Shown piece by piece: positions 35,292 to 58,893 of a DNA stretch of 64,000 nucleotides. This stretch comes from Myxococcota bacterium. Its GTDB lineage: Bacteria > Myxococcota_A > Polyangia > Polyangiales > Sandaracinaceae. Where the stretch lies: contig JAYZQJ010000082.1 of assembly GCA_036149055.1 (NCBI GenBank), forward strand, positions 1 through 64,000, read 5' to 3'. Position 1 is the first letter of the stretch; every line of letters begins with the position of its first letter. The position numbers and the translations under genes were made by a program. The notes under the pieces were generated by a model. That model did no database searches. It was not told the DNA's origin and saw nothing but the letters and a program-made list of their open reading frames with translations.

Positions 35292-35755
35292 CTACTCCAC
35301 GTCGGGGGCGCCGCCGGGGGCGAGCACCTCGAGGCGCGCGCTCTCGGGGACCTCGACCCGGGCCGCCTCCTCGAGGGCCTGGTCGCCCTCCATCTCGTCG
35401 ACGCCGGCGCGCCGCGCGATCACGGCGTCTCCCTCCCGGCGGACCTCGTAGCGGGCTCCGGCGCCCGCCCACCAGCAGCGCGCGAGGATCAGCGCGTCCC
35501 CCGCGTCCTGGTGGTAGCAGGCGCCGACCTCGGTCCCGAGGTCACGGGCGACCCGCTCGCCGTCGGGGGCGATGCGCACGAGCAGGACCCGGGTCTGCGG
35601 CGTCTCGTTCTCGTCGGCGCCGGCGTCCGCGAAGCGGAGCGCGACCGCGTAGCTCGGGGGCGGGCCCTCGGCCTCCTCCTCGGGCGTCTCGGGGGGCGGC
35701 GTGGCGGCGCCGCAGCCCAGCAGGGAGGCGGTCAGGATCGCGAGGGCGGCGCGTC

Positions 35756-35759
<4 letters not shown>
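35292..35759 (-). CDS. Hypothetical lipoprotein, 155 aa
   Basis: MRRAALAILTASLLGC lipobox; ATGA overlap with the upstream regulator. Confidence 0.75.
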
Positions 35760-37152
<1,393 letters not shown>

Positions 37153-37156
<4 letters not shown>

Positions 37157-38895
37157 TCTGCCGCCTCCGGGCTCTTGCCGATCTGCACCAGCCGCTCCTC
37201 CGCCGCCGGGAGCGACACGACGGCCCGCGCCCCGCCTCCTTCGCGGTTCTCGAGGGCGAGCGTGCCATTCATCGAGGCGACGAGCATGTACGACGTGTAG
37301 AGGCCGAGGCCGGTCCCCTTGCCCGGCGGCTTGGTCGTCGCGAACGGCTCGAAGAGCCGCCCCTCGATCTCGGCCGGCACGCCCGGGCCGTCGTCGTCGA
37401 TGAGGATCTCGACCCGCGAGCCCTCCCGGCTGGCGGTCACGCGCACCCCGCCGCGCGAGCCCTCGGCGACCGCGTCGTAGGCGTTCTGGAGCAGGTTCAC
37501 CATCACCTGCACGAGGTGATCGGGGTCGGCGGCCACCGCGTGGTCCGACAGCTCCGCCCCGAGGCTCACGGGCACGTCCTTGCCGGCGCCGGCGAACACC
37601 AGCGCGCGGGCGCGCTCCACCACCGCGCCGAGCGGCACCGCGCCCTCGATCTCGCTCGCCGTGAGGTCGCGGCCGGTCAGCAGACCTTGCGTGATGCGAC
37701 CGAGCCGCCGCGTCTCGTCGTGCACGAGCGCCGCGGACTCCGAGAGGTCCTCGAGGAGGTGGTCCGGGTCGTCGGTCGTCTGCTTCAGCGCGGCCACCAT
37801 GTCGGCGGCGAGGGTGCGGATGGTGGCGAGGGGCGTGTTCAGCTCGTGCGCCACGCCCTGGGTGACCCGGCCCAGGCTCGCCAGCCGCTCGGCGAGGATC
37901 AGGCGGCGCTCGCTCACCAGGCCGGCGGTGCGGTCGACGTAGAGGTTCATCACCCGCTCGCCGCCCGGCCCCGCGCCGAGGGGGAAGACCTGCATCTCGT
38001 AGATCCGCTCCTCGTCGTCGAGCTTCACCGCGAACCGGCAGTGCCCGGGCTCGCCCTCGTCGAGGGCGTTGCGCACCGGGCACACCCCGGTGACGTCCTG
38101 CTCGCAGGCGCGCACGTCGCCGGGGCACGCCCAGTGGTCGTGGCCGTCGGGGATCGCCGGCGCGAGCTGCTCGGCCCGCTTGTTCCGCCAGATCACCGCG
38201 CCGTCCTTCTCGACCACCTCGAGCCCGGCCTCGAGCTCGTCGAGGGTGTTGGTCAGCACCTCCAGCTCGAGCGCGGCCCGCTCGCGCGCCTCGGCCAGCG
38301 CCCGCTCGCGGTGCCGGAGCTGCCGCACCGCGTGGGTCACGAGGTAGGCGACCGAGCCGACGGTGGTGGTGAAGGCGACGATCTCCGCGAAGAGATCCCA
38401 GGGCCACACCGGATCCCAGCGCCCGATCTGCAGGGCCGGCACGTGCTCGGTGACCAGCAGCAGGCAGGAGAAGAGCAGGGCGGCCACCGCGGCGATCACC
38501 GTCGCGCGCGCGCCGCCGAGGATGCCCACGATGGCGACGTGGAAGACGTAGTAGCCGATGAAGGGCGTGCGCATCCCGCCGGCGGCCCAGAGCACCACGG
38601 TGAGGAGCAGCATGTCGACGACCGCCTGCCGCACCGCCTCGTGCGTGCCCCGGGGGGCGACCTTCCGGTGACGCCGCCAGAGCACGAAGTTGTAGACGCC
38701 GGCGCAGCCGACCGCGCCGAGCAGCACCTGCCAACTGACGCCCGGGAAGTAGCCGCTCGCGGCGAAGCCGGTGGCGAAGAGGATGCCGGCGAGCGCGATC
38801 CAGCGCAGGCGGATGAGCCAGCGCATCCGATCGACCGAGAAGTCGTCGGGCTCGTCCTCCACGAAGGGGCGAGAGTGTCGGATGCCGAGGGCCAT
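37153..38895 (-). CDS. Membrane sensor histidine kinase, RegB/PrrB-like TM domain plus Cys-containing PAS-like region
   Basis: WLIRLRWIAL start, several TM helices; AHELNTPLATI H-box; EPFATTK..GTGLGL. Confidence 0.85.
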
Positions 38896-38975
38896 GGCGG
38901 GGAACGTGGGGTCGCGGCGCCGTCCTGAACACCGCGCCCCCCAGTCTGCCGGCCCACCCGCCCCGGCGCCACGCG

Positions 38976-39602
38976 TCAGAGCTGGAGCCGGCGGGCCAGC
39001 GCCTCGAGATCCGGCGGCGTCGGTGCGGTGATCGTCAGCCCTCCTGCCCGGACCCGCTCGGCGTGCAGGGCGTGGCGGGGGAGCAACTCGCAGGGGGGCT
39101 CGCGGTAGCGTCGCTCCCCGAGCAGGGGGTACCCGAGGTGGGCGAGGTGGACCCGCGCCTGGTGGGTGCGCCCGGTGTGGAGCGTGACGTGGACCCGAGC
39201 GGCGTCGGCGCCGACGCGCGCCACCTCGATCGTCGACCGGGCGGCCTTGCCTCCCTCGCGCACCACCCAGCGACGGAGCCCGCGATCGTAGGCGAGCGGG
39301 GCGTCGACCTCGCGGCGCGTGAAGTCGGGCGCGCCGTGCACGAAGGCGAGGTAGCGCTTCTCGCCCGCCGCGAGCGCCTCTTGCCAGCGGGCGACCAGCG
39401 AGCGCCTCCGCACGAAGATCAGCACCCCGCTCGTGTCGCGGTCGAGCTGGTGCGCGGCCCAGAGCGGGCGGCGCAGCTGCCGCTGGAGGTGGTGCTGGAC
39501 GCCGCCGGGGTCGTCGGGCGTGCGCCCGGTGGCCTCGAGGCCGGGCGGCTTGTCCACCGCCACCACCCCGTCCGCGTCGTGCAGGATCGTCAGCCGGATC
39601 AC
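38976..39602 (-). CDS. RluA-family pseudouridine synthase
   Basis: VDKPPGL, HQLDRDTSG, K.Y.A.V, TGRTHQAR.H....G.PLLG, LHA; GTGA overlap. Confidence 0.88.
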   Translation of the reverse strand: MIRLTILHDADGVVAVDKPPGLEATGRTPDDPGGVQHHLQRQLRRPLWAAHQLDRDTSGVLIFVRRRSLVARWQEALAAGEKRYLAFVHGAPDFTRREVDAPLAYDRGLRRWVVREGGKAARSTIEVARVGADAARVHVTLHTGRTHQARVHLAHLGYPLLGERRYREPPCELLPRHALHAERVRAGGLTITAPTPPDLEALARRLQL

Positions 39603-41500
39603 TCGCCGGACGCCTCGGCGCTGGCGAACCGCCCCACCAGGTCCTGCACGGTGCGGAGGTCGAGCGGCTTGGCCACCGTCGGCACGCCGCGCTGGGCGAG
39701 GGCGTGCACGCTGGCCTCGGTGAACACGCCGCCGGTGCAGAAGACGAAGCGCGGCACCAGGTCCGGGTGCAGGCGCTCGATCGCCTCGAGCACCGAGGGC
39801 CCGTCCATCTCCGGCATCTCCACGTCGCACAGCACGAGATCGAACCCGTCGTCGTCGGCGAGGAGCGCGAGCGCCTCCGGCCCCGACGCGGCGACCGTCA
39901 CCTCGAAGCGGCGGCCGAGCATGCGGCGGTAGCCGCGCCGCACCAGCTCCTCGTCGTCGATCAACAGGATCCGCCCGGTGCGCACCCGCGGGCGCGTGCC
40001 GCTGATCGCCGGCGCCGGTCGCGTCTGCTCGAGCCCGGTGGCCTTGGGGAGCCGCAGGGTGACCCGGGTGCCCTGGGACAGCGCGGAATCGATCTCGAGG
40101 GCGCCGCCGTGACGCTGGGCGATCTCGGCGCAGACGCTCAGCCCGAGCCCCATGCCGCCGCGGTGCCCCTTGGTGGTGAAGAAGGGCGTGAAGACCCGGC
40201 GCTGGGTCTCCTCGCTCATGCCCGGCCCGTCGTCCTCGACCACGAGCGCGACCTCGTCCCCCTCCTGCCGGGTGCGCAGCCAGACCTGGCCGCCGCTCTC
40301 GTCGATCGCGTCGAGCGCGTTGGACACGAGGTTGCTGGCCACCTGGATCAGGCGGCCCTCGAAGGCGCTGATCGGCGCGACCTCGGGCAGCTCGGTGTGC
40401 ACGACCGCGCGCGACTTCCGGACCCGGCTCGAGAGGAGGTTCAGCGCGGCCCGGGCCACGACGTCGAGGTGCACGCGGGTCACGGCCTCGTCGCGCACCC
40501 GCGCGAAGGTCTGGAGGTCGCTCACGATCGAGGCGACGCGCGAGGCGCCTTTGAGCGCGTCGTCGAGCATCTCCTCGGCGTCGCGGTCCCAGCCGGAGCC
40601 GGCCCGCATCGCGCGCTGCAGGGTCTGGAGGTTGGCGAGCACGTAGGAGATCGGGTTGTTGATCTCGTGCGACACGCTCGCCGCCATCTGACCGAGCGCG
40701 AGGAGGCGCTCGCCCTGCACGAGGCGCCGCTCGGTCTCCTCGGCCTGCCGCCGCGCCTCGAGATCGCGGAGCGACGCGTACCAGACCGGCGCGCCCCGGA
40801 AGCGGGTCCGCGTGGCGCGCAAGGCGACGCTGCGCTTCGCGCCGCCGTCGACGGTGGCCTCGACCTCGACCTCGCCGCCCCGCGCGCGCTCGAGCACCGA
40901 CGCGGTGAGCGGCCTCCGGCCGACCAGACCCTCCTCGTCCTGGAAGAGCTGGCGCGCGGCCTCGTTCGCCCACGCGACCCGGAGCGAGCCCACGTCGAGC
41001 AGGAGGAGCGCGTCGGCGGCGACCTCGAGCACCCCCTCCAGCTCCTCGGCGGCGCGCTCGGCGTCGTCGGCCTTTGCCTCGAGCAGCTCGCGCAGGCTCT
41101 GCCGCTCGAGCGAGAACGCGATCGCGCGCGCGAGGCGCAGCGGATCGATCTCGTCCTTGGAGAGGAAGTCCTGCGCGCCCTCGGCGAGCGCGTCCAGCGC
41201 GATGTCCAGCTCGCCGCCGGTCAACACCACCACCGGGAGGCGCGGCGCCGCCTCGCGCAACGCGCGCAGCCCCTCGAGCCCCACCGCGTCGGGCAGGTGC
41301 AGGTCGAGCAGGGCCACGTCCGGGACCTCCGCCTCGATGGCCTCGAGCGCGTCGCCGATCCGGCCGACCGCGCGCACCGTCGCGAAGTCCTCCATCGCGT
41401 CGATGAGCAGCCGCCGATCGCTCGGGCTGTCCTCGACGAGCAGGACGGAGGTGCGCTCCGTCCCGGCCGCGCGCAGCAGACGCCTCGCGCGCTCGTTCAC
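39599..41500 (-). CDS. Hybrid kinase REC-PAS-HisKA-HATPase-REC
   Basis: VLLVEDS..LLDLHLPD..GAQDFLSK; HEINNP; FTPFFTTK; second REC LCDVEMPEMDG; GTGA overlap. Confidence 0.9.
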   Translation of the reverse strand: MNERARRLLRAAGTERTSVLLVEDSPSDRRLLIDAMEDFATVRAVGRIGDALEAIEAEVPDVALLDLHLPDAVGLEGLRALREAAPRLPVVVLTGGELDIALDALAEGAQDFLSKDEIDPLRLARAIAFSLERQSLRELLEAKADDAERAAEELEGVLEVAADALLLLDVGSLRVAWANEAARQLFQDEEGLVGRRPLTASVLERARGGEVEVEATVDGGAKRSVALRATRTRFRGAPVWYASLRDLEARRQAEETERRLVQGERLLALGQMAASVSHEINNPISYVLANLQTLQRAMRAGSGWDRDAEEMLDDALKGASRVASIVSDLQTFARVRDEAVTRVHLDVVARAALNLLSSRVRKSRAVVHTELPEVAPISAFEGRLIQVASNLVSNALDAIDESGGQVWLRTRQEGDEVALVVEDDGPGMSEETQRRVFTPFFTTKGHRGGMGLGLSVCAEIAQRHGGALEIDSALSQGTRVTLRLPKATGLEQTRPAPAISGTRPRVRTGRILLIDDEELVRRGYRRMLGRRFEVTVAASGPEALALLADDDGFDLVLCDVEMPEMDGPSVLEAIERLHPDLVPRFVFCTGGVFTEASVHALAQRGVPTVAKPLDLRTVQDLVGRFASAEASGE

Positions 41501-41877
41501 CGGAGGTGCGCCCTCAGCTGGTCGGCGAGCTCGAGGTAGCCGTCCGGAAGGTGCGGCTTCACGAAGAAGTCGGTCGCGCCGAGCTGACGACAGCGCCGCT
41601 CCTCGCGCGGGTTCGGTGAGCCGGTGAGGATCACGACGCGGAGGGCGGCGGTCTGCGCGCTCGCCCGCACTCGCTTCAGCACCTCGTCGCCCCGCATGCC
41701 GGGGAGCGACAGGTCGAGCACGACGAGGTCCGGCGGCTCCCCCTCTAGGGCGGCGAGCGCGCTCGGCCCGTCGGTGGCCCGCCGGATCGCCCAGTCCAGC
41801 CCGCGCTCCTCCAGCGCCTCGCGAAACATCATCGCGTCGGACCGGCTGTCTTCGACCAGCAGGATGGAGGGTGGCAT
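41497..41877 (-). CDS. Single-domain response regulator (Rcp1-like)
   Basis: ILLVEDSRSD, PDLVVLDLSLP, VVILTGS, LGATDFFVKP. Confidence 0.88.
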   Translation of the reverse strand: MPPSILLVEDSRSDAMMFREALEERGLDWAIRRATDGPSALAALEGEPPDLVVLDLSLPGMRGDEVLKRVRASAQTAALRVVILTGSPNPREERRCRQLGATDFFVKPHLPDGYLELADQLRAHLR

Positions 41878-41924
41878 GCGCGTTCCGGGGTGGGCCCAAG
41901 CATACATACGGCGGGGAGGGGCGC

Positions 41925-43070
41925 TCAATTCAGGTCCCGCGCCGGGAGCCACACGACGAAGGTGGCGCCGCCGCCCTCGGTGTCCTCGATCCGGATCGTT
42001 CCGGCCAGCCGCTCGACGATCCGGCGACAGATCGCCAGACCGACGCCGGATCCCTCGATCTCTTCCCGGGTGTGAAGTCGCTGGAACATCTCGAAGACGC
42101 GGGCGCGGTGCTCCTCGGCGATGCCCATCCCGTGATCGATCACGCGCAGCTCGACTCCGTCCGCGCGGGCGTCGGCCTCCACCCGGATCCGGGGCGGCGC
42201 GTCGCCCGCGTACTTGATCGCGTTGCCCACAAGGTTGGTCAGCAGCTGGTGGAGGTGGGTGTAGCTGGCCCGCACGGTGGGCAGGTCGTCGGCGACCTCG
42301 ATCCGGGCGCTCGAGTCCTCGACGAGCCCGGAGAGATCGGCGCGGACGTCGCGGACCACGTCCGCGAGCGACACGTCCTCCTCGTCGAGGCTCTCCTTGT
42401 CGAGCCGGGCGTAGTCGACGAGGTCGCGCAGCATCTGCTGCATGCGCACCGCGCCGTCCCGCGACAGCTCGAGGTACTCGCGGCCCCGCTCGTCGAGGCG
42501 ATCGCCGTAGCGGCGCTCGAGCTGCGCCGTGAAGTTGGACACCGCGCGCAGCGGCTCCCGGAGATCGTGCGAGACGACGTGCACGAACTCCCGGAGATCG
42601 GCGTTGAGCCGCTCGAGCTCCCGCGTCCGCTCCGCCACCCGCTCCTCCAGGCGCTCGGCGAGCTGCCGCGCCTCGTCTTCGGCCGCGCGGCGCTCCTGGA
42701 CCTCGCGCCTCAGATCGTCCGGGCTCGGGAGCGCGAGCGCCTTCGGCATCAGCGGGACGAGCACCGCCGCGGTCGCGACGCTCACCAGCGCGGTCGCCGC
42801 CTTCAGCCAGCCCTCCACCCGGTACTCCGGCACCCACGTCGTGTAGATGTCGAAGGCGTGCGTCGAGCCGCAGAGCAGGATGAAGGCGCCGAAGAGCAGG
42901 AAGATCCAGGGGAACGCCAGGTCGCTCCGCCGCCGGACGAACACCCCGAGGATCACGGGGATCGTGAAGTAGGCGATCGCGATCGCGCCGTCCGCGACGA
43001 CGTTCGTCCACAGCACGTCGGGCGTCCAGAAGTAGCAGTGCCCGTGCGGCATGAATTCGCCGTGATCCAT
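41925..43070 (-). CDS. Histidine kinase with ETR1-like ethylene-binding domain
   Basis: MPHGHCYFW..ADGAIAIAYFTIP..FGAFILLCGSTH..KAATALVS.ATA; SHDLREPL; NLVGNAIKY; FQRLH..GSGVGLAIC; GAGGAG RBS. Confidence 0.88.
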   Translation of the reverse strand: MDHGEFMPHGHCYFWTPDVLWTNVVADGAIAIAYFTIPVILGVFVRRRSDLAFPWIFLLFGAFILLCGSTHAFDIYTTWVPEYRVEGWLKAATALVSVATAAVLVPLMPKALALPSPDDLRREVQERRAAEDEARQLAERLEERVAERTRELERLNADLREFVHVVSHDLREPLRAVSNFTAQLERRYGDRLDERGREYLELSRDGAVRMQQMLRDLVDYARLDKESLDEEDVSLADVVRDVRADLSGLVEDSSARIEVADDLPTVRASYTHLHQLLTNLVGNAIKYAGDAPPRIRVEADARADGVELRVIDHGMGIAEEHRARVFEMFQRLHTREEIEGSGVGLAICRRIVERLAGTIRIEDTEGGGATFVVWLPARDLN

Positions 43071-43139
43071 GAATCTCCTCGCTGCGGGGTCGTCGTTCCC
43101 TCGGGCTCGATCTCTCCGGGACGGTATACTCCGCTTCAC

Positions 43140-43925
43140 ATGCGGCTCGCGACTTCAGGCGCGGCCATCTTGGCTTGCATCCTACTCTGGCAACCTCTCG
43201 CCCGCGCGCAGGACGACGCGGCGGCGAGCGAGGCGCGCGCGGCCTTCCAGGCCGGTCAGGCGGCGTACGCGGCCGGCCGCTTCCCGGCGGCGCTGACCTA
43301 CTTCGAGCGCGCCTACGAGCTCACCGAGGAGCCGGACATCCTCTACAACATCGCCACCGTGCACGACCGGCTGCGCCACGACCGCGAGGCGCTCGAGGCC
43401 TACCGCGGCTACCTCGCGGGGCGGCCCGAGGCGGAGGATCGCGCGAACGTCGAGGCGCGCATCCGGGCGCTCGAGGGCGCGCTGGCCGAGGCCGAAGCGC
43501 AGGCGGCGGCGGAGGCGGCCGCTCGAGCCGAGGCGGAGGCGGAGGCGGGGGCACGAGCCGCGGTGGCGCCGGTCGCCGAGCCGACGGCCGCCGAGCCGAC
43601 GAGCCGGACCGTGCAGCGCGACGCCGGGCCGGGGCCGTGGGCGCTCATCGGGATCGGCGGCGCGGCGGCGATCACCGGCGGCGTGCTGGTCGGCCTCGCC
43701 TTCGCCGACATCGACGCGGTGGAGAGCGGCGCGCCCCGGCCCTGGGGCGAGGTCTCGGACGCCGCCGAGCGCGCGCCGATCCTGAGCGGGGTGGGCTTCG
43801 CCGCGATCGGCGTGGGCGTCGCGGCGGTGATCGGCGGCGTCGTCTGGGCGGCGGTCGGCGGCGGCGAGGAGCAGATCGAGGTCGGCCTCGGCCCGGGCGG
43901 CGTGCGCCTGAGGGGGCGGCTGTGA
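43140..43925 (+). CDS. Exported TPR protein with C-terminal hydrophobic segments (myxobacterial TPR/PEGA-associated type)
   Basis: Signal peptide; AFQAGQAAYAAGRF..A..YFERAY..P.ILYNIA; C-terminal GPGGVRLRGRL. Confidence 0.75.
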   Translation: MRLATSGAAILACILLWQPLARAQDDAAASEARAAFQAGQAAYAAGRFPAALTYFERAYELTEEPDILYNIATVHDRLRHDREALEAYRGYLAGRPEAEDRANVEARIRALEGALAEAEAQAAAEAAARAEAEAEAGARAAVAPVAEPTAAEPTSRTVQRDAGPGPWALIGIGGAAAITGGVLVGLAFADIDAVESGAPRPWGEVSDAAERAPILSGVGFAAIGVGVAAVIGGVVWAAVGGGEEQIEVGLGPGGVRLRGRL

Positions 43926-45466: not shown

Positions 45467-46363
45467 ATGGCTGAAGCACCCGGGCCCCACCCGCCCCTCG
45501 CCCCCATCGTCCTCGTGACGGGCAAGGGCGGCGTCGGCAAGACGACCATCGCCGCCGGCCTCGCCGAGGCCGCGGCGCGGCGTGACGGAAAGGCGGTCTT
45601 CGTCGAGTTCGGCGACGGCGAGTCCGGCCGGCGCCTGCTCGCGTCGGCTCGCAAGGTCCAGCACGAGGTCGTCGAGCCTCGCGACGCGCTCGAGAAGAGC
45701 GTGGGCCGCCTGCTCGGCAGCAAGATGCTGGCGAAGATCTTCATCGGGAACTTCGCGGTCCGCCGCATGCTCCGGGCGGCGCCCGCGCTGCGGGAGCTCG
45801 CGATGCTCGACGCGGTGGGGCAGATCGCCGACAAGGCGCGCGGCAAGCGGGTCGTCGTCGACATGCCGGCCACCGGTCACGGGCTCGCCTGGCTGCGGCT
45901 GCCGACCCAGATGCGCGATCTCTTCGGCTCGGGCGGCCTCTACGAGCTGAGCGAGCGCCTCGTGCACCGGCTCGTCGCGCCCCGCGCCACCTCGGTGGTG
46001 GTGGTGACGCTGCCCGAGCGCATGGTGCTGCAGGAGACGCTGGAGCTCTGCGCGGCCCTCGAGCGCGAGGTCGGCATGCCGGCGGCGCGGCTGGTCGTGA
46101 ACCGCTTCCCGTCGCCGGTGCCCGAGGGCGCGGTGGCGCAGGCCAAGGCGCTCAGCGCGTCCGAGCACGCGCTCGGGGAGCCGGTCGAGCAGCTGCTCGA
46201 GATCCTCCAGGCCCGGGAGGCCGCGCGGAGCGAGGCGCTCGAGACGCTGTCGCACGCGCCCGAGCGGGGCCTCGCGATCCGTCCGCTCCTCCTGCCGCAG
46301 GTCGCGTTCGACCCGAAGGCCGAGCAGGTGGCCGAGTGGCTGGCGCGGGAGAAAGCCGCGTGA
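45467..46363 (+). CDS. ArsA/Get3-family ATPase, subunit 1
   Basis: TGKGGVGKTT, AAPALREL, VVDMPATGH, VVTLPE.M, VVNR. Confidence 0.85.
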   Translation: MAEAPGPHPPLAPIVLVTGKGGVGKTTIAAGLAEAAARRDGKAVFVEFGDGESGRRLLASARKVQHEVVEPRDALEKSVGRLLGSKMLAKIFIGNFAVRRMLRAAPALRELAMLDAVGQIADKARGKRVVVDMPATGHGLAWLRLPTQMRDLFGSGGLYELSERLVHRLVAPRATSVVVVTLPERMVLQETLELCAALEREVGMPAARLVVNRFPSPVPEGAVAQAKALSASEHALGEPVEQLLEILQAREAARSEALETLSHAPERGLAIRPLLLPQVAFDPKAEQVAEWLAREKAA

Positions 46364-47466
46364 GCGCGCACGCTCCCAAGACGGTCGTGTGTGCGGGGGG
46401 CGGCGGCGTGGGCAAGACGACGACGAGCGCGGCGCTCGGCCTGGCGCTCGCCCGGCAGGGTCACCGCACCCTGGTCGTCACCGTCGACCCTGCGCGGCGC
46501 CTCGCCTCGGCGATGGGCGTGGACGTGGACGCCGCGGTGCACGAGGCCCACGTCGAGCCCGGCGTGGAGGGCAAGCTCTTCGCGCTCATGCCCGAGCCGC
46601 GCCGCTCCACCCGGACCTTCATCGAGCTGCTCTTCGAGGAGGAGCCCGAGGCGAAGGCCCGCATGCTGAAGAACCGCATCTACCTGCTGCTCGCCGACGC
46701 GGCCGCGGGGATGCACGAGATCGTGTCCCTGATGCTGGTGGCGAAGGCGATCGAGGAGCGGACCTTCGACTACCTCGTGGTCGACACCGCGCCCTCGCGT
46801 CAGGGCCTCGACTTCGTCTCCTACCCGGGCCGGCTCGCCACCCTCTACGAGGGCCGCGCGGTCACCTGGCTCGGTCAGCTCGCCGGCACCGGCGAGGCCG
46901 AGGAGGAGAGCGACGGCGGCGGCCTGCTCGCCGCGGGCAAGAAGAAGGTCGAGCAGCTCTTCGGCCGCCTCGTGAACCCGCAGACGCTGCGCGATCTCGC
47001 CGGCCTCTTCGCCGAGCTCGCCCTGGTGAAGGACCGCTTCGCGCGCCTGGCGCGGGTGTCCGAGCACCTCCTGCTCGGGCCGTCCACGCGCTACCTGGTG
47101 GTGGCGGCGCCGAGCGGCTCGGCCGCGGCCGACGCGCGCTTCCTCGGTCGCAAGCTCAAGCGCCTCGGGCAGCGCCCGACCGCGCTCGTGCTCAACCGCG
47201 CCGACGCGGGCACCCCGGACTGGCTGGCCCAGCTCGACGGCGCCCAGGCGCTGCCGCCGGAGCTGTCCCAGGCGCTCGAGGCGGTGCACGCCGAGCTGCA
47301 CACCCGTCAGCGACAGGGCGACGCGCTCGCCGAGACCCTGCAGAAGGACATGCCGGGCACGCCGACCGTGCGCCTGCCGACGCTCGAGGCGCGCGATCCG
47401 AGCCGCATCGTGCGCTCCCTCGCCGATCGGCTGGCCGCGCACCTCCCGCTGCTGGCCGGGGCGTGA
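46360..47466 (+). CDS. ArsA/Get3-family ATPase, subunit 2
   Basis: GGGGVGKTT, TVDPARRLA, VVDTAPS, VLNR; GTGA overlap. Confidence 0.85.
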   Translation: MSAHAPKTVVCAGGGGVGKTTTSAALGLALARQGHRTLVVTVDPARRLASAMGVDVDAAVHEAHVEPGVEGKLFALMPEPRRSTRTFIELLFEEEPEAKARMLKNRIYLLLADAAAGMHEIVSLMLVAKAIEERTFDYLVVDTAPSRQGLDFVSYPGRLATLYEGRAVTWLGQLAGTGEAEEESDGGGLLAAGKKKVEQLFGRLVNPQTLRDLAGLFAELALVKDRFARLARVSEHLLLGPSTRYLVVAAPSGSAAADARFLGRKLKRLGQRPTALVLNRADAGTPDWLAQLDGAQALPPELSQALEAVHAELHTRQRQGDALAETLQKDMPGTPTVRLPTLEARDPSRIVRSLADRLAAHLPLLAGA

Positions 47467-54923: not shown

Positions 54924-57353
54924 TCAGGTTCCGTCCTCGGACCCCGGCTCGGGCGTCTCCTCCGGCTCGGTCCCGAACTGGTTCATCAGGAAGCTGCTCG
55001 TGTCGAGCACGTCGGGCGGGGTCGCGGTCTCGGTGGGCACGGTGCCCTCGAGGAAGACCTCCTCCAGCGTGTCGTCCTGCCCGTCGTAGGCGAGCAGGCC
55101 GCTCGCCGGGTCGATGGTGGCCGTGACCACGCCGCTCGGCACCGCGAAGTCCCGCCGCGGGCGACCGTCGAGCGCCGCGTCCATCACGTCGATCCAGATC
55201 GGCAGCGCGGTGCGGCCGCCGCTCTCCCGCCGTCCGAGCGGACGCCGGTCGTCGAAGCCCACCCACACGCCGGCGGTGAGCTCGGGCGAGAAGCCCACGA
55301 ACCACGCGTCGCGCACGTCGTTGCTCGTGCCCGTCTTGCCGGCCACCGAGCGCCGCAGTCGGCGCGCGCGCCGCGCGGTCCCGTCCCGCACCACGCTCGT
55401 CATCATGCTGGTGAGCACGTAGGCCTCCGCCGGCGACATCACGTCCCGCGGCGCCTCGCGCTCCGGCAGCGGCACCTCGCGGCCGTCCGGCCCGACGATG
55501 CGCTCGATCAGGCGCGGCGGCTCCCAGCGCCCGCCGGCCGGGAACGTCGCGTAGGCGTTCACGAGCTCGATCGGGCGCACGTCCGAGGCGCCGAGCGCGA
55601 GGGCCAGGGTGGGCTCGAGCTCGGTCGAGATCCCGAGCTCCCGCGCGAAGCGCACCACCTCGGGCGGGGTGACGTCCTCCATCACCCGCACCGCGACCTG
55701 GTTGATCGAGCGGGCGAGGGCCTGCCGCAGGCGGATGTGCCCCTCGAAGCTCCAGGTCTCGTAGTTGCTCGGCCGCCAGTCGTCGTAGACGCCCGGGGCG
55801 TCGATCACGATCGAGGCGGGCGTGTAGCGCCGCGAGCGGAGCGCGGTCGCGTAGACGAAGGGCTTGAACGTGCTCCCGGGCTGCCGCACCGCCTGGGTCG
55901 CGCGATCGAAGCCGGGGCCCTCGTCGTAGCTCCCGACCAGCGCGAGCACGTGCCGCGTGCGGGGATCGATCACCACGATCGCGCCCTGCGGGCCGAGCTC
56001 GAGCCGGGCCCTCGCCGGCGCCTCGGGGTCCTCCTCGCTCGGCAGCTGCTGGATTGACGCGCGCACCCGCGCGCCCTCCTCGGCGAGCTCGCTCGGCGGG
56101 AGCTCGTCGGGGTTCCAGCGCGCGAGGTCGGTCACGTTCGCCGCCGCGCGGTGCCCGCCCACGTCGAGCAGCACCAGCCCGTGCTCATCGTCCGCGCCGG
56201 TCACCCGGGCGTCGTAGGTGCCGCCCACCCGCAGCGCCTCGACCTGCGTCAGCTCGCGCGCTCGCCGGGGAGCGCTCAGCGGCACCCGGAGCCGCTGCCG
56301 CTCGTCGACCGCCTCGAGCCCTTCGCGCAAGGCCGCGCGGGCGGCGTCCTGCAGATCCGCGTCGATCGTCGTGTGGATCGTGTAGCCGCCGCGGGCCGCC
56401 GCCTCCGCGCCGACCTGCTCCCGGAGCACGCGCCGGGCCCGCGCCATCACCTCCGGCGCGCGGTGCTCGCGCTCGGGCAGCGGGATGATCTCCACCTCCG
56501 CCTCGCGGGCGGCGGCGATGTCCTCCTCGCTGAGATCCGGCCAGTACTCCACGCGCTTCTCCGAGAGCTGGCGGAGCACGAAGAGCTGCCGCCGCCGGGC
56601 CGCGTCGGGGTGGGTCCGGGGCGAGAGGTGGGTGGGCGACTGCGGGATGCCGGCGATCAGCGACGCCTGCGCGAGCGTCAGCTCCTCGACGTTCACGCCG
56701 AAGTAGTACTGCGAGGCCTCTTGCACCCCGTAGCGGCCGTGGCCGAAGTTCACCTGGTTCAGGTAGAGCTCGAGGATCTCGTCCTTGGTGAACTCCTGCT
56801 CCAGCCGCCGCGCGAGCATGAGCTCGCGGATCTTGCGCGACAGCGCGCGCTCCGGCGTCAGCAGCAGGTTCTTGATCACCTGCTGGGTGATCGTGCTCGT
56901 GCCCCGGAAGCGGCCGCCGCCGACCAGCCCTCGGGCCACCGCGCGGATCAGGCCCGGGTAGTCGAGCCCCTCGTGCCGATAGAAGTCGGCGTCCTCGGCC
57001 GCGAGCACGCTCAGGACGAGCACCCGCGGGACTCGCTCGAGGGGGACCACGGTCCGTCGCTCGCGCCAGCTCTCGCCGAGCAGCTCCCCGTCCCGGTCCA
57101 CGACCCGGGTGACCTGCGGCGGGCGGTAGTCGTGCAGGGCGGTGACGTCGGGCAGGTCGCGGCCGTAGTAGGCGAAGACCCCGCCGAGGCCGAGCGCGGC
57201 GAGGAGCACCGCGGCCAGCAGCGTCACCACGAGGCGCTTGGTCCACTTCCAGACCCGCCCCGGCTTCTTCGCGGCCGCGTTCGCGCGCGAGCGCGAGGGC
57301 CGCGGCGCCCGCCCCGACCTCTTCGAGGCACCCTTTCGACGCGCCGTCGCCAC
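54924..57353 (-). CDS. mrcA: Penicillin-binding protein 1A (class A PBP; start uncertain)
   Basis: Transglycosylase AEDADFYRH.G, STITQQ..KN, RKIRE; transpeptidase GSTFK, SIN, KTGT. Confidence 0.88.
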   Translation of the reverse strand: MATARRKGASKRSGRAPRPSRSRANAAAKKPGRVWKWTKRLVVTLLAAVLLAALGLGGVFAYYGRDLPDVTALHDYRPPQVTRVVDRDGELLGESWRERRTVVPLERVPRVLVLSVLAAEDADFYRHEGLDYPGLIRAVARGLVGGGRFRGTSTITQQVIKNLLLTPERALSRKIRELMLARRLEQEFTKDEILELYLNQVNFGHGRYGVQEASQYYFGVNVEELTLAQASLIAGIPQSPTHLSPRTHPDAARRRQLFVLRQLSEKRVEYWPDLSEEDIAAAREAEVEIIPLPEREHRAPEVMARARRVLREQVGAEAAARGGYTIHTTIDADLQDAARAALREGLEAVDERQRLRVPLSAPRRARELTQVEALRVGGTYDARVTGADDEHGLVLLDVGGHRAAANVTDLARWNPDELPPSELAEEGARVRASIQQLPSEEDPEAPARARLELGPQGAIVVIDPRTRHVLALVGSYDEGPGFDRATQAVRQPGSTFKPFVYATALRSRRYTPASIVIDAPGVYDDWRPSNYETWSFEGHIRLRQALARSINQVAVRVMEDVTPPEVVRFARELGISTELEPTLALALGASDVRPIELVNAYATFPAGGRWEPPRLIERIVGPDGREVPLPEREAPRDVMSPAEAYVLTSMMTSVVRDGTARRARRLRRSVAGKTGTSNDVRDAWFVGFSPELTAGVWVGFDDRRPLGRRESGGRTALPIWIDVMDAALDGRPRRDFAVPSGVVTATIDPASGLLAYDGQDDTLEEVFLEGTVPTETATPPDVLDTSSFLMNQFGTEPEETPEPGSEDGT

Positions 57354-57489
57354 GCGTCCGGACCGTACCGCTGTGGAAGGAAGGCGCAAAGCTCCGCGTG
57401 CAGAACCCGCCGACCGCGCCTACTTCTTCCGGGACGGTCGCACATTGTCCTCGATTGCGGTCGCGGGACGCCGTATCTACTTCCGAGTC

Positions 57490-58893
57490 ATGGGGCTGGA
57501 CTTCGACCTGCGCGCGACCTCGGCCGCCCTCGGCGCGGCGGGGATCGGTCTGCTCCGCTACGACCGGGCGCACGGTCTCCGCCTCGACGCGCGCGCCCGG
57601 GCCCTGCTCGGGGGCGAAGCGCCCGCCGACGGGGTGGCCGAGTGGCTCGCCGCGCGGGCCGAGGGGGACGCCCTGGTCGGCGCGTGGGAGCCGATCCTGG
57701 CCGGCGACGTCCCGGAGCTGCGGCGCGATCTGCGGGTCGCGCTCGAGGGCGGCGCGCGGGAGCTCCGGCTGGTGGCCTCCCTGCACGAGGGCGCGGTCGT
57801 GGGCACGCTGCAGGCGGTGGAGCCGGCGGAGGCGCTCCGGCGAAAGGCCGAGCGGAGCGAGCAGCGCTTCCGCGCCATCTACGAGAACGCGCCGGTGATG
57901 ATCGACGCCTTCGGGCCGGACGGCGGGCTCGTGCTCTGGAACCGGGAGTGCGAGCGGGTGCTCGGGTACACCGCCGACGAGGTGACGGCCTGCGACGACC
58001 CGATGGAGCTGTTCTACCCGGACCCGGAGACCCGCGAGGCCGTCTTCGCGACGATCGTGAATCCGGACGGCCAGTTCCGGGAGTTCCAGGTGCGGACCCG
58101 CCATGGCATGCGGGCGCAGCGCTGGGCGAACTTCGCGCTCCCCGAGGGCGAGATCATCAGCGTCGGCTATGACGTGACCGACCTGCGCGTCTCCCACGAC
58201 CAGCTCGCGCGATCGAACCGGGAGCTCGAGGAGTTCGCCTACGTCGCCTCCCACGACCTGCAGGAGCCGCTCCGCATGGTGCGCAGCTACGTGACGCTGC
58301 TCGAGGAGGAGTACGGGGATCGGCTCGACGAGGAGGGGCGCACCTACATGGCCTACGCCGTCGACGGCGCGCGGCGCATGCAGGCCCTCGTGCACGATCT
58401 GCTCGCCTACTCCCGGGTCCAGAACCGCGAGCTGGAGCTCGAGTCGGTCGACCTCGGGGAGGTGCTCGCCGACGTCGCCGCGGAGGTCGAGCCGGCGCGC
58501 CTCGCGGCGGACGGCGAGATCGGGGTCGGGCCCCTGCCCACCGTGATCGGCGACCGAGGCCAGCTGCACCGCCTCTTCCTCAACCTGGTGAGCAACGCCC
58601 TGAAGTTCCGCCGCCCCGGGGAGCCGCCGCGGGTCTCCGTGCAGGCGCGGCGAGACGGCGAGCGCTGGCGCGTCGAGGTCGGGGACGAGGGCATCGGCTT
58701 CGATCCCGCGCAGGCCGAGCGCGCCTTCGGCATGTTCCAGCGCCTCAACAAGCGCAGCGAGTACGAGGGGACCGGCATCGGCCTCGCGATCTGCCGGCAG
58801 ATCGCCCTCCGCCACGGCGGCGCGATCGGCGTCGAGACCGAGCGGGGGGAGGGCAGCACGTTCTGGGTGCTCCTCCCCGAGTCGCCGGCTTGA
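57490..58893 (+). CDS. PAS-domain histidine kinase (soluble, Cph1/BphP-like HisKA)
   Basis: RFRAIYENAP..WN..CERVLGY; FAYVASHDLQEPLR; NALKF; FQRL..GTGIGLAIC. Confidence 0.88.
   Translation: MGLDFDLRATSAALGAAGIGLLRYDRAHGLRLDARARALLGGEAPADGVAEWLAARAEGDALVGAWEPILAGDVPELRRDLRVALEGGARELRLVASLHEGAVVGTLQAVEPAEALRRKAERSEQRFRAIYENAPVMIDAFGPDGGLVLWNRECERVLGYTADEVTACDDPMELFYPDPETREAVFATIVNPDGQFREFQVRTRHGMRAQRWANFALPEGEIISVGYDVTDLRVSHDQLARSNRELEEFAYVASHDLQEPLRMVRSYVTLLEEEYGDRLDEEGRTYMAYAVDGARRMQALVHDLLAYSRVQNRELELESVDLGEVLADVAAEVEPARLAADGEIGVGPLPTVIGDRGQLHRLFLNLVSNALKFRRPGEPPRVSVQARRDGERWRVEVGDEGIGFDPAQAERAFGMFQRLNKRSEYEGTGIGLAICRQIALRHGGAIGVETERGEGSTFWVLLPESPA

Follow-up and report, generated by a model that had tools for sequence, protein, structure and literature searches.

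The ethylene receptors ETR1 and ERS1 of Arabidopsis carry a membrane domain of the family PF25487 with a conserved lysine in helix 3 (PMC10266040, PMC11971883), and both features recur in P0001, the bacterial protein described here. In the working model, a cysteine and a histidine of this domain hold Cu(I), while an aspartate polarises the histidine and bridges to the helix-3 lysine; replacing the aspartate by asparagine lowers the affinity (PMC10266040), by about 100-fold according to PMC11971883. In ETR1, the published positions of these residues are D25, C65 and H69 (PMC11819568, PMC11971883, PMC10266040). Plant receptors differ from P0001 by a GAF domain, two N-terminal cysteines, a location in the ER and an output mainly via CTR1 rather than by phosphorelay.

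Many proteobacteria and cyanobacteria carry predicted ethylene receptors, the outputs of which are diverse (PMC7700396), and direct evidence of binding by the receptor exists for three microbes only (PMC11819568). The two bacterial receptors known in detail both bind ethylene, with responses at about 1 ppb (PMC6682694, PMC11819568). SynEtr1 (slr1212) of Synechocystis PCC 6803 and GeiEtr1/2 of Geitlerinema belong to the same sensor family as P0001 and have one N-terminal cysteine, for which an inter-subunit disulfide has been suggested (PMC6682694); this group also resembles P0001 in its output from a histidine kinase to a regulator, a likeness drawn from published descriptions. However, SynEtr1 carries a light-sensing cyanobacteriochrome GAF domain, whereas P0001 has neither GAF nor PAS. 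AzoEtr1 of Azospirillum brasilense Sp7 keeps all seven residues needed for binding in ETR1, its fragment AzoEtr1[1-130] binds ethylene saturably, and the variants D35A and C75A fail to complement (PMC11819568).

The gene for P0001 lies in a window of 64,000 nucleotides (contig JAYZQJ010000082.1) from a member of the Sandaracinaceae (Myxococcota), in which a first-pass annotation had proposed an ethylene-receptor-like histidine kinase.

An intact kinase with an ETR1-family sensor

P0001 is an intact membrane histidine kinase with a three-helix sensor of the ETR1 family (Table 1). Its frame starts with the ATG at 43070 and ends with the TGA at 41925; a longer, GTG-initiated frame is also present, and the orthologues likewise measure 380-381 aa. 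Pfam places ETR1_N at residues 19-114, HisKA at 159-225 and HATPase_c at 271-378 and finds no match to PAS or GAF; the plant-type architecture, with a GAF domain between sensor and kinase, is not that of P0001. The 25 best NCBIfam matches are generic kinase models, every one of them under its cut-off. P0001 is the sole ETR1_N match in its genome (96% complete).

Table 1. Features of the P0001 locus (window coordinates)
Feature	Position	Strand	Basis
Histidine kinase gene, ETR1_N-coiled-coil-HisKA-HATPase (P0001, 381 aa)	41925..43070	-	ORF, Pfam
GAGGAG, ribosome-binding-site-like, ending 4 nt 5' of the P0001 ATG	43075..43080	-	sequence
N-terminal PHGHCYFW motif, residues 8-15	43026..43049	-	sequence
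Three-helix membrane domain of ethylene-binding type (PF25487), residues 19-114	42729..43016	-	Pfam, alignment, AlphaFold
Coiled-coil linker, ~residues 117-158, running on into the DHp helix, without PAS/GAF	42597..42722	-	Pfam, AlphaFold
HisKA/DHp, phospho-acceptor H168, Cph1-type H box	42396..42596	-	Pfam, alignment, PDB profile match
HATPase_c, all four boxes (N, G1, F, G2) intact	41937..42260	-	Pfam, alignment
Single-domain response regulator (P0002, 126 aa), 47 nt downstream of P0001	41497..41877	-	Pfam, sequence
Hybrid kinase (P0003, 633 aa): REC, weak PAS-like stretch, HisKA, HATPase, REC	39599..41500	-	Pfam
RluA-type pseudouridine synthase gene	38976..39602	-	domain scan, gene position

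The sensor matches ETR1_N (PF25487) with 127.3 bits against a cut-off of 27 (E 2.8e-37) and covers profile positions 2-97 of 97. AlphaFold models three N-terminal helices (residues 17-47, 54-79 and 83-113; mean pLDDT 91.9, and 91.3 for the other model), and the hydrophobicity of this region has three peaks, in agreement with three membrane helices. All 43 aligned domains match ETR1_N, while any other family matches at most one of them. Sequence and profile searches of the membrane domain against the PDB gave non-significant matches only, Foldseek of its model returned nothing at E<=0.001, and no solved structure of an ethylene-binding domain was found in the PDB copies searched. The initial assignment to the three-helix ethylene-binding family is thus borne out by the profile score, the 49% identity to AzoEtr1 and the retained key residues, and comparison by HMM and fold, named at first as able to refute it, turned up no rival family.

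The residues listed at first are all at the positions given for them, namely P8-H9-G10-H11-C12-Y13-x-W15 at the N-terminus and D27, Y34, I37, P38, I64, C67 and H71 in the sensor domain, which also contains K90. Y34, I37, P38 and I64 are presumably the counterparts of Y32, I35, P36 and I62 in ETR1. As a spaced pattern, the seven sensor residues occur once in the 19.8 million six-frame residues of the genome, compared to 2.4e-5 occurrences expected from composition; PHGxCxxW likewise occurs once. Among the best 120 of 567 protein matches, all seven positions are retained in 114 of 120 sequences (query counted), and not one of the 120 departs from C12 or W15. By analogy with the cyanobacterial receptors, C12 may form an inter-subunit disulfide. 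Wherever asparagine takes the place of the aspartate, the helix-3 lysine is missing as well (9/9 sequences, four of them Asn/Asn among the best 120 of 567 homologues and five Asn/Arg among 46 loci, which are partly kin and thus not independent). This joint loss is consistent with the Asp-Lys bridge described in PMC10266040. Conserved residues of this kind predict a capacity to bind, not the natural ligand.

Alignment with AzoEtr1 yields 68 identities in 138 positions (49%) and is ungapped over P0001 residues 1-119 at an offset of +8, with D27, C67, H71 and K90 in register with D35, C75, H79 and K98; both proteins also share the residues at the Tyr, Ile, Pro and Ile positions. The sequence used is a 525-aa ORF on an Sp7 plasmid with a receiver gene next to it, which was taken as AzoEtr1 because its length, layout and residue numbers fit the description in PMC11819568. 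The first-pass claim that P0001 follows the spacing of ETR1 at an offset of +2 stands for Asp-Cys-His, which are 40 and 44 residues apart in ETR1 (25/65/69, by published residue numbers), in AzoEtr1 and in P0001 (27/67/71). It does not extend to helix 3, where the Asp-to-Lys distance is 63 in P0001 and AzoEtr1 and 66 in ETR1. AzoEtr1 and the P0001 locus also share PHGxCxxW, an intact kinase and a single-domain regulator directly downstream, which is AzoRR(etr1) in Azospirillum (PMC11819568). In contrast to P0001, the 525-aa AzoEtr1 includes a PAS domain, and its kinase is only distantly related (26% identity), whereas in P0001 a plain coiled coil leads to a Cph1-type kinase and a hybrid kinase gene follows. 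Moreover, Azospirillum is a root coloniser and the P0001 host a probable marine myxobacterium, and ethylene binding is proven for AzoEtr1 but only predicted for P0001.

In the AlphaFold model, residues 117-191 form a single continuous helix that enters the DHp domain, and the kinase has conserved H168, N279, N283, D312, G314, G316, G340 and G342. Compared with the PDB, the family profile best matches 8f71, the kinase domain of the bacteriophytochrome RpBphP2, which supports the label ‘Cph1-like’; two homologues among the matches listed are named ‘sensor kinase Cph1’. The coiled coil running straight into a Cph1-like HisKA without GAF or PAS, as read at first, is therefore upheld by Pfam, by the continuous helix and by the 8f71 match. 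Kinase domains of Cph1/bacteriophytochrome transmitters are included among the best PDB matches of the profile, but P0001 has no photosensory module. At E<1e-15, tblastn with the kinase region of P0001 gives 44 matches in its own genome. The window encodes another Cph1-type kinase at 57238-58893 (+), for which Pfam reports a weak PAS match; with 46% identity to the P0001 kinase region, it is tied as the closest genomic paralogue of that region.

Relatives and distribution

Predicted ETR1-type receptors are widespread in bacteria, and P0001 is an ordinary member of this family. The rarity implied by the first-pass annotation did not survive a survey of genomes: among those sampled, 25 of 401 in the phylum (~6%), 37 of 301 in the class (~12%) and 4 of 32 in the family (completeness 75-100%) had ETR1_N over its cut-off, each count including G000, while none of 14 control genomes had a match. 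The family count takes in the unpublished genome G427, whose locus L032 is one comparison row on which no conclusion depends alone. As 28 of the 32 family genomes have no match, ETR1_N is not a core trait of the family. Named relatives come from Pseudomonadota, Acidobacteriota, Bacteroidota, Planctomycetota, Verrucomicrobiota and cyanobacteria. The layout of P0001 is usual among its closest homologues as well: among the best 120 of 567, 87 of 119 non-self homologues combine ETR1_N with HATPase without a Pfam PAS or GAF, 22 have PAS and 10 lack both; length limits and the required likeness to the query bias these counts. The sensor cysteine and the H box are 100 residues apart in P0001 and 82-107 apart in 15 of 26 other loci of the phylum and family, a set that omits the truncated L025 and four loci under the threshold.

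Among the matches listed, proteins labelled Sandaracinaceae MAG make up part of the cluster to which the nearest homologue belongs, and the second-nearest has this label as well; by these names, the host is probably a member of that family. The key residues are the same in the orthologues of a second species (83% identity) and a second genus (65%). In a tree of the domain (57 rows; L001 and L025 omitted), P0001 groups with its same-genus and same-family orthologues with a support of 98/93; deep branches of this tree are not resolved and its bootstrap had not settled. On this tree, the own-phylum label has to change 8 times, but only 1 change is forced by starred branches; with the bootstrap unsettled as well, neither one origin nor several can be read from it. 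Recent horizontal transfer of the gene is unsupported: its GC3 of 0.95 is like that of the adjoining genes (0.92-0.98), and orthologues occupy the same site in two genomes.

In agreement with the first-pass annotation, a title and abstract search of the literature found no characterised myxobacterial ethylene receptor among the matches listed, although the species lists of surveys could include some; no myxobacterium is named in a supplement of PMC10266040. The same holds for nearly every phylum, given the three microbes with direct binding evidence (PMC11819568).

Probable operon and habitat

Judging from the gene arrangement, P0001 likely heads an operon with P0002 and P0003. The GTG start of P0003 overlaps the P0002 stop by 4 nt, and the start of the RluA-type gene overlaps the P0003 stop by the same length. 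P0002, a putatively ‘Rcp1-like’ regulator, has intact receiver residues (E9, D10, D55, T85, K107) and is the likely cognate partner of P0001, with P0003 as the likely downstream relay. The RluA-type gene is probably co-transcribed with them, yet would be no part of the signalling. Sigma-70 promoter and terminator models, which are uninformative for this organism, had no match in 38900-43400, and none of the genes around P0001 gives a hint of ethylene biology or of an output.

Synteny was sampled in 10 stretches from 9 genomes. G379, of the same genus, shows full synteny (identities of 83%, 80% and 82%) and has a second, paralogous three-gene operon, unlike the window's own genome, which contains no second ETR1_N match. 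Kinase-then-receiver order is present in 5 of the 10 stretches (L053, L054, L056, L060, L061); in L057 and L058, its place is taken by a REC-GGDEF-like gene in divergent orientation. In G402, of the same family, an orthologue with 65% identity sits at the same site without regulator and hybrid kinase (L055, G402:C345), and the kinase-regulator pairing is therefore not obligate.

Several further features of these loci were observed. The second ETR1_N kinase of G379 (L054, G379:C25:3000-16000) is of the other motif subtype, is 43% identical and has its own kinase-regulator-hybrid kinase operon. In L055, the orthologue lies between RluA-like and ArsA-like genes, and the TPR and RCC1-like genes are also absent there. 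Tandem genes at 45467-47466 (+) of the window, labelled ArsA/Get3-like ATPases by inspection, are kept in both G379 and G402. Just downstream of the operon, at 35292-38895 (-), sequence inspection shows a membrane histidine kinase (37153-38895) followed by a response regulator that looks to be of the sigma-54 type.

The host is likely a marine myxobacterium and apparently known from metagenomes only. Its DNA is found mainly in seawater and other marine material: apart from what may be the source run, 81-89% of the sampled words are present in each of 14 DNA runs (7 studies; seawater, marine, estuary and invertebrate gut). Four RNA runs, from at most 3 samples and 2 studies, contain near-identical contigs. 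One of these contigs, 42228-43546, crosses the boundary between the P0001 gene and the divergent TPR gene, which is explicable by DNA carry-over, and the RNA-run contigs were therefore not counted as expression. Genes for ethylene-related metabolism do not discriminate: the di-iron monooxygenase family PF02332 has no match in this genome or in any control genome, the ACC deaminase model TIGR01274, with its cut-off at 392 bits, reaches only 91, and HMA copper-handling domains are present but near-universal.

Signalling model and alternatives

The ETR1_N score of 127 bits, the 49% ungapped identity to AzoEtr1, the retained key residues and the lack of a rival family argue for an ethylene-type sensor, and the original suggestion that this organism may sense ethylene or a related small ligand still holds as likely on these grounds. 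We consider it probable that P0001 is a Cu(I)-dependent ethylene-type receptor kinase that likely signals to the adjacent regulator P0002. By analogy with work on ETR1 and AzoEtr1, P0001 would act as a dimer in which each subunit carries one Cu(I), held by C67 and H71 of helix 2, while D27 on helix 1 would polarise H71 and might bridge to K90 on helix 3. Ethylene binding at the copper could then shift helix 3, and the movement would pass through the coiled coil to the DHp helix with H168. If the inverse-agonist analogy discussed in PMC11819568 applies, the kinase would be active in air, and ethylene would turn it down, resulting in less phosphorylation of D55 on P0002 and possibly also of the first receiver of P0003. 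The presence of Asp and not Asn at position 27 would make P0001 a receptor of the high-affinity, slow-release type.

Cu(I) sites bind alkenes, CO, isocyanides and volatile sulfur compounds. The natural signal of P0001 might be such a ligand, or copper occupancy, and ethylene binding incidental; the family is widespread in bacteria without an obvious plant link, P0001 DNA occurs in seawater and marine samples, and PMC11819568 allows ethylene-independent roles. We nevertheless regard this as rather unlikely, since the seven key positions and the lysine of P0001 are not remodelled, both bacterial receptors known in depth bind ethylene and react to about 1 ppb of it (PMC6682694, PMC11819568), and marine algae are reported to make ethylene (PMC5730936, citing two other papers). 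The absence of regulator and hybrid kinase next to the G402 orthologue, together with the 47-nt gap between P0001 and P0002 and the possible cross-talk among the 44 kinase-region matches of the genome, could be taken to mean that an ethylene-type sensor signals to a receiver encoded elsewhere instead of P0002 or P0003. Yet the three genes share one orientation and are conserved in G379, where the second, paralogous operon has the same layout, and AzoEtr1 too has a single-domain regulator directly downstream (PMC11819568), which makes a distant partner very unlikely. It is more improbable still, to the point of being barely credible, that the sensor is decaying or has lost its function, a relic that does no more than anchor the kinase in the membrane: patchy occurrence (4/32 family genomes) and RNA-run contigs that do not count as expression would fit such a relic, but the open frame, the ribosome-binding-like site and the key residues are intact, and the orthologues at 83% (other species) and 65% (other genus) identity keep the same residues.

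For the ethylene-type receptor kinase, the source and use of the signal are matters of speculation. Ethylene might come from outside, e.g., from algae or cyanobacteria in seawater, and might tune attachment, biofilm formation or gliding. That marine predatory or scavenging myxobacteria read algal or cyanobacterial ethylene as a prey or phycosphere cue, via a minimal receptor (sensor, coiled coil, kinase) connected to a regulator plus a hybrid kinase, seems distinctly doubtful to us; if true, ethylene would be not only a plant-microbe signal but also a cue between predator and prey in the sea. If P0001 binds ethylene, bacterial ethylene sensing would extend to a marine myxobacterium, beyond plant-associated and cyanobacterial cases. 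With its sensor joined directly to an intact kinase within 381 aa, P0001 is a compact construct for structural and mechanistic work. Hundreds of homologues (567 matches) are equally minimal and the gene is not special in this respect; its lineage and marine habitat add modest interest.

Within the phylum, the sensor domain varies. An ARWHC-type motif mostly replaces PHGHC across a clade of 13 rows (100/100; L003, L008-L013, L015, L017, L019, L021, L024, L029), all from the own phylum; as outside sequences were gathered with a PHGHC-type query, this does not establish a restriction to the phylum. Another own-phylum clade of five members (100/99; L016, L018, L020, L022, L023) has paired Asp-to-Asn and Lys-to-Arg replacements and has lost the helix-1 proline; its members are predicted candidates for natural low-affinity receptors. 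Such subtypes may cover different concentration ranges. In L006 (G177:C346) and L018 (G128:C12), ETR1_N lies within frames of >1100 aa that stay open for long stretches on its upstream side; a possible N-terminal fusion in L006 had no Pfam match in the 500 aa scanned. Finally, short ETR1_N frames of 126-172 aa occur in five class genomes of one genus (G495, G456, G557, G578, G548), which suggests stand-alone sensors without a kinase.
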